The notes below the pieces were generated by a model. It had not been told where the DNA came from and did not search any database. It saw only the letters and a program-made list of their open reading frames with translations. A DNA stretch of 64,000 nucleotides. Source: Heptranchias perlo. Lineage: Eukaryota. The stretch is from NCBI RefSeq assembly GCF_035084215.1, contig NC_090368.1, positions 3,410,001 to 3,474,000 of the forward strand. The letters are read 5' to 3'. A program made the translations under genes and the position numbers. Positions 8,801 through 17,600 of the stretch are shown piece after piece (within the stretch, counting starts at the first letter, position 1; every line of letters starts with the position of its first letter).

Positions 8801-10684
8801 NNNNNNNNNNNNNNNNNNNNNNNNNNNNNNNNNNNNNNNNNNNNNNNNNNNNNNNNNNNNNNNNNNNNNNNNNNNNNNNNNNNNNNNNNNNNNNNNNNNN
8901 NNNNNNNNNNNNNNNNNNNNNNNNNNNNNNNNNNNNNNNNNNNNNNNNNNNNNNNNNNNNNNNNGATTTGATAGAGATAAATTGATAGAGAGATAGATAG
9001 ATGATAGATAGATAGATAGATAGGGAAATAGATAGATAGATAGAGAAATAGAGAGATAGATTGATAGAGAGATAGATAGATGATAGATAGATAGAGAGAT
9101 AGATAGATAGAGAGATAGATAGATAGATTATCGATGGATAGATCGATAGAGAGAGATAGATTATCGATGGATAGATAGAGAGATAAATAGATAGATGATC
9201 GATAGATAGATAGAAAGATAGATGGATAGAGAGATAGATAGAGAGAGTTAAACAGTCAGAAGCTAAACACTGAAATATTGAGAGATATGGGGGAGTAAAT
9301 GATGCTGTAAATATACATCGACACACAGAAAGGGAGAAAGTTTTAATATACAAAGTGAAACAGCTAAAAGATAAGTCTTACACCAGATTAAAGATAGAAA
9401 TAAAGGGTCACTGTCAATACTCACCTCTCTGATATGAAACACTTTCACTGGTGAGGATTCCAGTGGTGTTAGTTTGAACACTGCAAGTACAGACAGCGCC
9501 GCCGCTCCAAGTTTCCGCCGAGACGCTAATGTAACTCCTGACACTGTAGCTCCCGTCCGGGTCTATTATCCCGGAATCGGTCCGCCCCTCGGTCACCAGT
9601 CCGGAAACATTCCAGCGGATGGGAGAGGATTCGGGAGATACGCCTCTCGCCAGACACATCAACGCGACCCTTTCCAGCGAGCGAATTTCATCCGGCGGCG
9701 GAGTTAGGAGAAATATGGCCGGGGGACCTGCCGAGTTTCCGGGTTAAGGTTAGTATTCAAACATTAATTCGTGGTTATTTATGATGAAATGAGTAAAAGA
9801 ATCGTAATTCGTACCTGTGATGAGCAATTTCGAGCCGTTTCCGAATACAAGGGGCATTGTGCTGTATGCTTTAGCTGCACAATAATACACGCCCGAATCA
9901 CTAGTCTGGACACCTTCAATAACCAGAGAATAAACAGTCGATTCCTCGTTAACTTGCCCCGAAAACCTCCCGTCTGCGGGCATGTGTTTTGCTACGATGT
10001 AAACGTGTCGTAGCTGCTCTCGGTGCTGCCGTTTGTACCAGGTAACAGCACCGTATGCTAACCAGTCCGTGTGACAATGGAACTTAACGGAACTTCCAAC
10101 GGAGACCGTCTGAACCGCCGGAGTCTGGTGGAAAACCGCCTGAGATAAAATAACTGGGAAAGGAAGAATATTCACAAGAGGTTTCTGTTATGGCAGGGGG
10201 GGATAAAACGCTGTTTCGTATTTATACCGCGCCTTTAACTATATCAGGACATCCCAAAGCGTTTTACAGCCAATGGAGGACTTTTTGAAAATGTAGGGAA
10301 ACGCTGGCAGCCAATTTACGCACAGCAAGATCCCACAAACAGTAATGGGTTAATGACCAGATCTTAGTGGTGTTGGCCCCAGGACACCGGGGGAGAACTC
10401 TTCTTCCAATATTGGCCCGTGGGATCTTTCATATCCACCCGAGAGGGGGCAGACGGGGTTTAACGTCTCAACCGAAAGATGGAGAATGTTGACATTTGGT
10501 CTATTTTAATTAGCCTGAGATAATTAATTCCTTCAATGTGACACTAATATTGGAGAATACAGTACACAATCTTTTACTTCAGACTATCTTAATGATCTCA
10601 CACAGGAATTCGGTTATAAATCTGAAAGAGAGACGACTTACCTGGAAAGAGATGGAACAGCGCACAGGGAGCAAAGCAACTCAT
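5758..10684 (-). CDS. VJ-C1 antigen-receptor-like IgSF membrane receptor, gene A (301 aa; L-VJ-C1-TM-cyt1-cyt2)
   Basis: Six GT-AG exons in compatible phase. 10684-10642 leader [14 protein letters not shown]; 10153-9815 V+J ([21 protein letters not shown]); 9727-9425 C1 (LMC..IRW..YSVRSYI..ETW..CTCSV); 7440-7324 stalk Cys + TM ([39 protein letters not shown]); 7198-7140 ([20 protein letters not shown]); 5802-5758 ([14 protein letters not shown]). Total 906 nt, open frame. Confidence 0.88.
5855..6320 (-). mobile_element. CR1-clade LINE 3' fragment
   Basis: [20 protein letters not shown]. Confidence 0.8.
6340..6975. repeat. AT-rich ~30-bp minisatellite in the last intron of gene A
   Basis: (aaaatatccatataattatttaaaatatcctt)n, degenerate. 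Confidence 0.93.
7140..7198 (-). CDS. Gene A exon 5, cytoplasmic
   Basis: 59 nt, tag|...GAG|gtaaat; same size and phase as gene B exon 5. Confidence 0.8.
7324..7440 (-). CDS. Gene A exon 4, stalk cysteine + transmembrane
   Basis: 117 nt, phase 1-1, hydrophobic stretch followed by basic residues; same size as the gene B TM exon. Confidence 0.85.
7780..8700 (+). mobile_element. CR1-clade LINE ORF2 (RT C-terminal) fragment
   Basis: [24 protein letters not shown]...[14 protein letters not shown]...WNSLP, with frameshifts. Confidence 0.9.
8705..9250. repeat. (GATA)n/(GA)n microsatellite spanning assembly gap 8799-8964
   Basis: Visible tetranucleotide repeat; another (GATA)n tract at 7729-7773 on the other side of a CR1 fragment. 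Confidence 0.95.
9425..9727 (-). CDS. Gene A exon 3, C1-set Ig domain
   Basis: [39 protein letters not shown]...[24 protein letters not shown]; 303 nt, cag|...|gtgagt. Confidence 0.92.
9815..10153 (-). CDS. Gene A exon 2, germline-joined V-J Ig domain
   Basis: ttcccag| acceptor and |gtacga donor; V-set Cys/Trp/DxGxYxC plus J-type FGxG strand in one 339-nt exon. Confidence 0.93.
10642..10684 (-). CDS. Gene A exon 1, signal peptide
   Basis: ATG...CCA G|gtaagt, 43 nt, phase 1; same length as and similar to the gene B leader. Confidence 0.8.
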
Positions 10685-10759
10685 TGTCTGTGGGACCGAG
10701 GCGGTTGCTGTGAGCTTTGCACTGGCACTTTGCTAAATGTGATACCTTTGCGCTGAGAT

Positions 10760-14586: not shown

Positions 14587-14622
14587 TTAATCCGCACTGT
14601 ACGCCAGGCGAGCGTACAGAGT
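14587..14622 (-). CDS. Gene B exon 6, TLYARL motif + stop
   Basis: ctcacag|ACT CTG TAC GCT CGC CTG GCG TAC AGT GCG GAT TAA. Confidence 0.82.
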   Translation of the reverse strand, partial: TLYARLAYSAD

Positions 14623-17600
14623 CTGTGAGGGAAGAATATGAGAATAATTACTGCCATCTTCACCCCCTCTCTTCACTGTTATCTCTTACTGTGAGAAGTT
14701 AGAAGTTTGACTCAAAATGATAAGCTATCGGTGATCTCCCGCCTGAGTGTCCTTAGATTAATTTAAGAACAGGAAAAAGGACTTTAAAAAAGAAAAGTTA
14801 ACGTATATTATTTACATAGCAATGCAAGAATAAACTCAGAAAAATCTTCTCTCCTTATCTCTGTAACCCCCTCCAACCCTCCGAGATCTGTGCGCTCCTC
14901 CAATTCTGGCCTCTTGCGCATCCCCTACGCCCTTAGCCCCACCATTGGCGGCCGTGCCTTCAGCTGCCTGGGCCCTGAGCTCTGGAATTCCCTCCCTAAA
15001 CCTCTCCACCTCTCTCTCCTTCTTTAAGACGCTCCTTAAAACCTACCTCTTTGACCAAGCTTTTGGTCGCCTGTCCTTAAGGGGTGATCTGATCGAAGTT
15101 TATAAGATATTAAGGGGAACGGATAGGGTGGATAGAGAGAAACTATTTCCGCTGGTTGGGGATTCTAGGAGTAGGGGGCACAGTCTAAAAATTAGAGCCA
15201 GACCTTTCAGGAGTGAGATTAGAAAACATTTCTATACACAAAGGGTGGTAGAAGTTTGGAACTCTCTTCCGCAAACGGGAATTGACACTAGCTCAATTGC
15301 TAAATTTAAATCTGAGATAGATAGTTTTTTTGCCAACCAAAGGATATGGGCCAAAGGCAGGTATATGGAGTTAGATCACAGATCAGCCATGATCTTACCA
15401 AATGGCGGAGCAGGCTCGAGGGGCTGAATGGCCTACTCCTGCTCCTCTGTTCCTAATATCTCCTTATGCGGCTTGGTGTCAAATTTTTGTCTGAAACGCT
15501 CCTGTGAAGCGCCTTGAGACGGTTTACTACCTTAAAGGCGCTATATAAATGCAAGTTATCGTTGTAAGCAATTCATTACATGTGAACCGCTCTGGGTCAT
15601 ATCTGAGGGAGAATTATGTGTTGTGTAAGTGAGAATCTTTCTTTAAACTTACTACCAACCGACATATCCATTAATATCAAGGAAACATGTGATACAAGTA
15701 TAGAACCATACAGCACCGAAGGAGGCCATTCGGCCCGTCGTGCCTGTGCCTGCCCGTTGAAAGAGCGATCCAATTAGTCCCACTCTCCACGCTCTTTAAT
15801 GAAAACAAAAGCTCTCAATTTCTTCATACGTACCTCGCTTTCTTGTTTCTTTATTCTTGGTTTTGTGCCTTGGTCAGGTGTGTCTGGACTGCCTGATTTA
15901 AGGAGATGATTATAATTATAAATGTACAGACCTACACACCAAAGGGACATGTTCAACAAACGGTAAATCACTCCATCGACGGTTAAGTTCAAACAGTCGG
16001 GTACCTGGTTTGCGGTTCTTATCGCGTCTTCTCGCGGCGACAATGATCATCCCGAGCAGAAAAGGGGCCGCCACCAGACAGGCGTAAAGCCCGATGGGGC
16101 AGGCCATGCTCTGGAGAGACTCTGAATGACAAAGAAATAACTTTTATTAAATGAACAAAAAAAAAAAGAAGTTGACTTTCAGTAAAATTCTGAAATCTAT
16201 TGGCATTTTCTGATATTTCTGCGGTAATCAATGTGCACACAATGGTGTACTGTCCGCTATATAAATCTGGCCTCTTGTGCATCCCTCACCCCTTTCGCCC
16301 CACCATTGGCGGCCGTGCCTTCAGCTGCCAGAAAGGAATGAGGGTGTTAGGCGATCTTTTGTAAGCATTCGGTTGAATAAATATTTGGGGGGGAAAAAAC
16401 GTATGTAGAAAGGGCAGCTAATGGGATTAAGGCAGAGTTCTTTCAGAGAGAGGGCACAGGGGCGATGGGCCGAATGGGGAAAGGATAGGGGAATGGGACT
16501 GAGAATATTCCTTTCAGAGAGAGGGCACAGAGGCGATGGGCCGAATGGGGAAAGGATAGGGGAATGGGACTGAGAATATTCCTTTCAGAGAGAGGGCACA
16601 GAGGCGATGGGCCGAATGGGGAAAGGATAGGGGAATGGGACTGAGAGAATATTCCTTTCAGAGAGAGGGCACAGAGGCGATGGGCCGAATGGGGAAAGGA
16701 TAGGGGAATGGGACTGAGAATATTCCTTTCAGAGAGAGGGCACAGAGGCGATGGGCCGAATGGGGAAAGGATAGGGGAATGGGACTGAGAATATTCCTTT
16801 CAGTGCGAGGATAGAGGGGCGATGGGCCGAATGGGGAAAGGGCAGGGGAATGGGATTAAGGCGTTATTTTTTTCAGAGCGAGGACACAGGGGCGATGGGC
16901 CGAATGGCTCCCTTCTGTACAGGAAAATTCTGTATCTAGATCGGGGGAGGTCATGGGACAGGTAACTAATGAAGCAGTTTAAGGTATAAAGTAACAGATA
17001 CAGCAATTTAACACTATCGTTAACTATATTAAACTTCCAATATCTCCACTCACCTCTCTGATATGAAACACTTTCACTGGTGAGGATTCCAGCGGTGTTA
17101 GTTTGAACACTGCAAGTACAGACAGCGCCGCCGCTCCAAGTTTCCGCCGAGAGGCTAATGTAACTCCTGACACTGTAGCTCCCGTCCGGGTCTATTATCC
17201 CGGAATCGGTCCGCCCCTCGGTCACCCGTCCGGAAACATTCCAGCGGATGGGAGAGGAATCGGGAGATACGCCTCTCGCCAGGCACATCAACGCGACCCT
17301 TTCCAGCGAGCGAATTTCATCCGGCGGCGGAGTTAGGAGAAATATGGCCGGGGGATCTAATAAATTCGATAAATGAGCCGGAACAATTCAAAACGGATGT
17401 GTAAATGAACATTTGAATGAAATAATTGTGAATTTTACCTGCAATCACCAACATGGTGCCATTTCCGAAGATAAAGTTGGTATTTTCCTGGTTGTGAATT
17501 GCACAGTGATAAATTCCTGAATCGTTTCTCTGGACGTTTTCAATAACCAGAGAATAATTACTCGACGCATCACTTATCTCGCCGGAAAACCTTCCCTCTG

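Follow-up and report, generated by a model that had tools for sequence, protein, structure and literature searches.

Why should two receptor genes whose variable domains, transmembrane segments and introns have drifted far apart carry one exon that is nearly the same to the base? The question is raised by a 64,000-nucleotide stretch of Heptranchias perlo (assembly GCF_035084215.1, contig NC_090368.1, positions 3,410,001 to 3,474,000; hereafter the window), in which two genes, here called A and B, lie in tandem in the same orientation on the minus strand, 7.6 kb apart. Each encodes a joined variable domain (VJ) followed by a single C1-type constant domain, and it is the C1 exon that they share. 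From comparison of the two genes with each other and with their homologues, C1 was most likely copied from one gene onto the other by recent germline interlocus gene conversion.

One exon shared by two diverged genes

Both genes consist of six exons, in the order leader, joined VJ, C1, stalk and transmembrane (TM) segment, cytoplasmic tail and a last exon with a TLYARL tyrosine motif. The frames are open over 301 residues in gene A and 298 in gene B, and all splice sites are AG/GT (Table 1). An FGxG motif within the V exon places V and J in a single exon in both genes. V and J segments that stand apart and bear recombination signals, as in the rearranging genes of immunoglobulins (Ig) and of T-cell receptors (TCR), are not present in A and B, and a recombination signal scan of 184 kb gave two matches, neither of them within A, B or a third paralogue, gene C, described below. 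There is one C1 exon per gene; tandem C1 domains of the UrIg type are lacking. The predicted structure of the gene A C1 (predicted local distance difference test score, pLDDT, 91.5) has antibody CH3/C1-set domains as top folds, and a sequence search of the PDB returned generic antibody chains only. The closest protein relatives of the window genes come from sharks and rays. As judged by the tyrosine motif and a TM segment without charge, both products are likely inhibitory-type surface receptors; a motif similar to TLYARL is found in 41 of 44 homologue tails.

The C1 exons, both of 303 nt, are 98% identical and differ at 6 positions, five non-synonymous and one synonymous. One difference (9727) is the first base of the exon and changes a split codon (Gly/Asp), another (9654, TGT/TGC) is silent, and the remaining four exchange residues: E/D at 9630, L/R at 9598, V/L at 9524 and T/A at 9464. 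At the protein level 96 of 100 residues are identical. The ungapped match extends from 9726 to 9419, that is from exon base 2 to position +6 of the donor; mismatches restart at 9418 and, past the common acceptor AG, at 9730. The six intron bases included in it (GTGAGT) are also present in gene C, which identifies them as donor consensus and makes the tract effectively the exon. These counts agree exactly with those of the sequence-only reading from which this work started, and its statement that near-identity halts within a few bases of the splice sites can now be given as edges at 9727 and 9418.

Outside C1, 52 of 112 in-frame V residues are identical (53 of 113, as first reported, if the split Val codon is included), as are 13 of 38 residues in the TM exon, 6 of 19 in the tail and 9 of 12 in the last exon; the leader exons share 26 of 42 nt. 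Alignment of the V–C1 intron gave 47 identical columns out of 89 (shuffle p 0.05), that of the first 100 nt past C1 61 out of 109, and that of the TM–tail intron 76 out of 130; by these alignments the introns are homologous yet diverged. The two gene units have 189 exact 20-mers in common, none of them outside C1. The initial description of a 98% identical C1 amid divergent V, TM and introns is thus borne out by exon and intron alignments alike.

Silent sites follow the same boundary. Synonymous divergence (dS) is 0.013 in C1 (one difference in 78 silent sites; 95% Poisson interval 0.0003-0.071), compared to 0.92 in V, 0.84 in TM and 1.0 in the tail, values close to saturation, and 0.74 in the last exon, and even the upper bound for C1, 0.071, is about a thirteenth of the V value. 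Codons specifying the same residue differ in their bases in 1 of 93 cases in C1 versus 20 of 51 in V (Fisher p 8e-10), and four-fold sites differ in 0 of 53 cases versus 21 of 48 elsewhere. Since the longest run of identical four-fold sites, 60, was matched in 0 of 200,000 permutations, the identity of C1 is not a matter of chance. In the last exon 4 of 9 same-residue codons differ despite the kept motif, indicating that selection on the protein does not freeze silent sites here. No signal of GC-biased conversion was seen (GC content at third codon positions: C1 0.59-0.60, V 0.52-0.56, TM 0.68-0.71). The in-frame changes in C1 (4 non-synonymous and 1 synonymous; non-synonymous divergence, dN, 0.018, dS 0.013) are located at variable columns. 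Amino-acid changes are not depleted among the C1 changes since conversion, and so far nothing points to selection in favour of a shared C1.

Two old V lineages and C1 in other sharks and rays

Relatives were collected by an alignment search, which gave 46, and by a profile-free search of cluster representatives, which added more. A or B type was assigned by motif prior to building of the V tree. The trees omit the gene C lineage, lungfish, coelacanth, near-duplicates (P0190, P0007, P0015), P0044 and domains of fewer than 70 residues; of the fused model P0008 the second unit alone was used. Approximately unbiased (AU) tests were run on subsets of 25-29 rows.

In the V tree (44 rows), A-type and B-type sequences are split with a Shimodaira-Hasegawa-like approximate likelihood ratio (SH-aLRT) support of 98, rays and skate occur on both sides, and a clade uniting the A and B V domains is rejected (AU p 0.001). 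In the C1 tree, A and B are sisters (100/99) and a clade of A-type C1 is rejected. V lineages common to sharks and rays imply that the A/B duplication is old: genes A and B would be older than the shark-ray split, and their C1 exons would share a much later ancestor. The deep split between A/B and C across bony vertebrates has a low support of 55/18.

Could C1 simply be well conserved? C1 of other species reaches 72% identity at best, versus 96% between A and B (protein). Of 1081 homologue pairs, 732 have a V identity of at most 50%, and the 14 of these with a C1 identity of at least 75% are all within horn shark; for the 698 cross-species pairs with V at most 50%, C1 peaks at 73%. With the best foreign C1 at 72%, conservation alone is insufficient to account for the A/B identity. 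Equal conservation of C1 between distant species, which the sequence-only reading had set against its own proposal, was looked for at the protein level and did not appear.

Within other species, C1 of A-type and B-type genes is 40-56% identical in basking shark (12 pairs) and 44-45% in smoothhound (3 pairs); cloudy catshark has values of 47 and 56%, two Mobula species lie at 44-46% and skate is at 40%. Five other genera thus keep A/B C1 at 40-56%, and a shared C1 is not a rule of the family. Horn shark is different: all 14 of its 14 A x B pairs combine a V identity of 40-48% with a C1 identity of 79-85%, and TM plus tail are also common to the two types (71-85%). Its C1 and tail sequences group together as one clade (99/97), with rejection (p 0.005) of an A-type clade. 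Horn shark would represent a parallel and wider exchange, of C1 plus tail, and exchange between the A and B lineages has probably occurred more than once.

The homologue set (P0002-P0047) is mosaic in TM and tail as well: the tails of galeomorph genes with a B-type V group with A-type tails (96/82), and those of gene B, sawshark and rays fall outside. In addition, the F strand of C1 carries C-x-C in place of the usual Y-x-C (window 9426-9725). This feature is near-invariant in shark and ray members, is also seen in turtles, caecilian, coelacanth and eel, and makes a handy family marker. Beyond sharks and rays, relatives are known from lungfish, sturgeon and eel as well as from turtles, caecilian and coelacanth.

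Probable gene conversion and its rivals

The proposal of the sequence-only reading, a recent conversion confined to C1, is well supported by the homogenised silent sites, the age of the V lineages and the lack of C1 conservation across species. Its course may be pictured as follows. C1 would have stayed alike enough for recombination pairing, probably through repeated rounds of exchange, since a single jump from V-like divergence (about 62% nt) is unlikely. Gene conversion requires homology; with introns diverged and only the exon homologous, the tract edges are explained without special machinery, the tract presumably stopping at the exon edges where homology ends. V, TM and tail may have diverged beyond copying, or V copies may have been purged by selection. 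The outcome would be two inhibitory-type receptors with distinct ligand-binding V domains on a near-common C1.

As to the donor, the C1 tree favours the B group, with the A1 group set apart (90/87), but not significantly so. At the six difference sites the decayed copies of the locus and gene C mostly match A, but they are too distant to polarise the changes. Searches of the 3.25-Gb genome for a third donor with C1 DNA, C1 protein and both V proteins (best 150 candidates scored in the protein searches) gave only A, B and the distant gene C.

Several points weigh against this account. Grouping of the A/B pair with A-type C1s is not rejected (AU p 0.285), and donor and non-reciprocity are thus not shown. 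The repeated rounds of exchange are something we infer and did not observe. The identity of the two C1 exons is read from the genome assembly alone, and the cross-species tests are at the protein level, on automatic gene models clustered at 90%. In sawshark, the close squalomorph relative among the matches, only B-type proteins were obtained, an A-type partner being searched for and not found, and there is thus no pair of species in which the tract can be compared before and after. For horn shark, an A-type grouping of C1 alone is not rejected (p 0.056-0.057), and a chimeric lineage of old date, joined with catshark P0039, is likewise not rejected (p 0.15 and 0.06).

Among other explanations, the one that survives best, improbable as we judge it, is a double unequal crossover that swapped the C1 of one gene into the other. 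It yields an identical sequence pattern, and the wider sharing of C1, TM and tail in horn shark resembles a crossover between V and C1; here, however, two crossovers would be required within a few bases of both splice sites, in a setting where the V–C1 and C1–TM introns have diverged. Conversion templated by spliced RNA or cDNA of the other gene, with homology limited to exons, would suit a tract running from exon base 2 to a donor consensus that the third paralogue also has. With diverged introns, DNA-to-DNA conversion would leave edges just like these; all introns are still in place, and expression in the germline would be required, which leaves this route very unlikely. Both produce the pattern of conversion less economically.

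An assembly or polishing artefact, in which reads of one C1 would have replaced the sequence of the other, has to be weighed since the sequence is known from the assembly alone, and it appears equally remote. The six differences persist, and for three of the four in-frame residue changes (V/L, T/A and E/D) both states are found among homologues; the flanks of either gene are intact and unique, and its frame is open; cross-mapping of reads would by reasoning need copies already very alike; the pattern in horn shark was obtained from a separate, independent assembly; and a nearby recent duplicate, around a light-chain C exon, includes its flanks (1131 bp at 98.9%). Extreme purifying selection on C1, silent sites included, has in its favour that C1 is often better conserved than V among same-type paralogues, but it is scarcely credible with foreign C1 at most 72% identical, a dS of about 1.0 between the C1 of gene C and that of A, and five of six differences altering a residue. 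A recent duplication after which all but C1 diverged fast would fit the tandem arrangement but is just as hard to credit, as silent sites and introns have diverged, the two V lineages are common to rays, and the A+B clade of V is rejected.

Conversion therefore remains the preferred explanation of the pattern. Its function is another matter: the idea of 'different V, one C' achieved without somatic recombination is a description and was not supported as a function. The genes have two separate C1 exons with five residue differences, searches of the genome gave only one A and one B gene, the five other genera lack the sharing, and the C1 changes show no depletion of amino-acid replacements. By default, we regard the shared C1 as a largely neutral by-product.

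What is seen here is most likely a known process, gene conversion, now in a little-studied family of non-rearranging VJ-C1 receptors, and in the less common polarity, with a shared membrane-proximal domain beneath two old V lineages. It is a clean and sharply bounded case of exon-level concerted evolution among receptors that databases label antibody or TCR chains. Trees of such receptors based on C1 risk false orthologies and false ages, which matters because these genes feed arguments on the origin of antigen receptors.

Gene C, the surrounding locus and known systems

Gene C is apparently intact, with a leader, a VJ with degenerate J, a C1 (51% to A) and a TM segment with stalk cysteine, followed by several tail exons, one of them with VLYASL. 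Its lineage is conserved in sharks and rays (98/96). A and B might be alternative recognition chains that each pair through C1 with the gene C product, selection keeping C1 conversions and rejecting V conversions, recurrently in sharks; we rate this as unlikely, though less so than the rivals above. The same low likelihood attaches to its corollary, a germline-fixed, TCR-shaped two-chain receptor providing 'several V, common C' without RAG in a family near the antigen-receptor precursor. A stalk cysteine is present in A, B and C, and this, the persistence of the C lineage and the heterodimers that we take PRARP receptors (see below) to form may be cited toward such pairing. In structure prediction, the complex of C1(A) with C1(C) reached a median score of 0.59 versus 0.01 for the best of 3 controls, with runs agreeing in at least 93% of contacts and a partner pLDDT of at least 79. 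Of 78 solved pairs 51 attain the mark for such scores, as do 2 of 108 mismatched ones; scores of at most 0.60, however, comprise just 5 of the solved pairs but every one of the 4 passing mismatches, and passes at this level are wrong more often than right. C1-C1 dimers are textbook structures, and together with the low-score pass this means that the model shows likeness only. If a shared C1 does serve a common partner chain, the locus would be a small model, open to experiment, of how V could be diverse on a common C prior to V(D)J recombination.

Table 1. Coordinates of genes and other features (window positions unless otherwise stated)
Feature	Position	Strand	Evidence
Gene B, whole	19511-14587	-	
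Gene B leader exon (split leader, phase 1)	19469..19511	-	ATG to GT donor, frame open throughout model
Gene B exon with V and J joined, V of B-type lineage, FGNGT	17439..17777	-	Pfam V-set 9.5e-18; V tree
Gene B C1 exon, homogenised with A	17054..17356	-	Pfam C1-set; 6/303 differences; AG/GT ends
Gene B stalk cysteine and TM exon	16005..16121	-	TM without charged residue
Gene B cytoplasmic exon	15834..15892	-	AG/GT ends; frame maintained
Gene B final coding exon, with stop codon and TLYARL tyrosine motif	14587..14622	-	
Gene A, whole	10684-5758	-	
Gene A leader exon	10642..10684	-	matches horn shark P0005 leader
Gene A exon with V and J joined, V of A-type lineage, FGNGS	9815..10153	-	Pfam V-set 1.1e-15; V tree
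Gene A C1 exon, homogenised with B	9425..9727	-	Pfam C1-set; AG/GT ends; structure model
Near-identical tract in gene A	9419..9726	-	308 nt, 5 mismatches; partner 17048-17355; genome DNA search 98%
Gene A stalk cysteine and TM exon	7324..7440	-	TM without charged residue
Gene A cytoplasmic exon	7140..7198	-	frame maintained
Gene A final coding exon, with stop codon and TLYARL tyrosine motif	5758..5802	-	
Gene C, third paralogue	about 3.1-10.1 kb left of window start (contig about 3399900-3406900)	-	
Inverted decayed C1 fragment between A and B, not homogenised	12040..12232	+	nhmmer E 1.5e-11; 131/232 columns to A
Inverted decayed C1 of pseudogene, not homogenised	3760..4005	+	nhmmer E 4e-21; 172/275 columns to A
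Inverted promoter/leader-region remnant of the same pseudogene	1547..1794	+	nhmmer E 1.7e-15 vs gene A upstream region; alignment
Upstream motif CAGGAAACCCACA	10840..10852 (-), 19693-19705 (-), variant 1597-1609 (+)		

Two decayed, inverted relatives lie in the window. The fragment between A and B resembles gene C in its first part; the pseudogene (1547-4005) retains a promoter region and a decayed C1, with V undetectable. The upstream motif, of CAGGAA(A/C)CCACA type, has three matches only in 184 kb, upstream of A, of B and of the pseudogene. We take it to be ETS/RUNX-like, hinting at lymphocyte expression.

About 33.2-20.3 kb left of the window start lies a light-chain-like V with a 12-spacer signal together with two identical, opposite-facing C exons, which sit in an inverted duplicate (1131 bp, 98.9%). 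Its isotype is presumably like sigma-2/type I. The non-rearranging genes thus have a rearranging light chain as neighbour, and only the light-chain V carries a 12-spacer signal. To the right, about 15.4 and 26.5 kb from the window end, are two single-exon G protein-coupled receptor frames of 418 and 398 codons stop to stop; we assume a resemblance to relaxin-3/INSL5 receptors, and they are usable as synteny markers.

How does the locus compare with known systems? PRARP and Xenopus VJC1, reportedly described in 2019 by Fu et al. and Ohta et al. respectively, are said to have a joined VJ, one C1, a TM segment, a tyrosine motif and a stalk cysteine. A and B match these features, with a VJ joined without recombination signals, a single V and a single C1, a TM segment and a tyrosine motif, and look PRARP-like. 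No homologue match is named PRARP, and the 20 library matches looked up carry generic names. PRARP is named as a joined-VJ gene in passages of PMC10751288 and PMC11599192, and a passage of PMC7916673 treats NITR only. A literature search, with most subscription journals outside its coverage, found no paper on C1 conversion in the PRARP/VJC1-like family.

Shark UrIg2 (Sci Adv 2025, PMC12227049) is likewise a non-rearranging VJ-C1 gene with C domains homogenised by within-species gene conversion. There, nine or more C domains are repeated within one gene, whereas A and B are two genes with one C1 each. Opsins are described as showing the reverse pattern, with introns converted and an exon protected (PMC3924837).

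Merohomogenization, reported for the KLRC/NKG2, KLRI, KLRB, Ly49 and PIR paired leukocyte receptors (Fossum et al. 2011, PMC3210942), is similar in that old adjacent paralogues are partly homogenised after speciation, silent sites too, in single-exon tracts of a few hundred bases. It differs in that, in those receptors, homogenisation affects the domain that binds ligand, in pairs of an activating and an inhibitory partner, and here it is the membrane-proximal C1 and not V, presumably the ligand-binding domain of A and B. In addition, A and B carry the same TLYARL motif and would not be partners of opposite signalling.

The nearest match in polarity appears to be the clustered protocadherins, where the ectodomain is homogenised by conversion (Noonan et al. 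2004, as summarised in Ohta 2010, PMC3966226). There too one extracellular domain is homogenised and the rest is diverse. By that summary, many variable exons are spliced to common exons in protocadherins, whereas here two full genes are involved and the tract is a whole separate exon.

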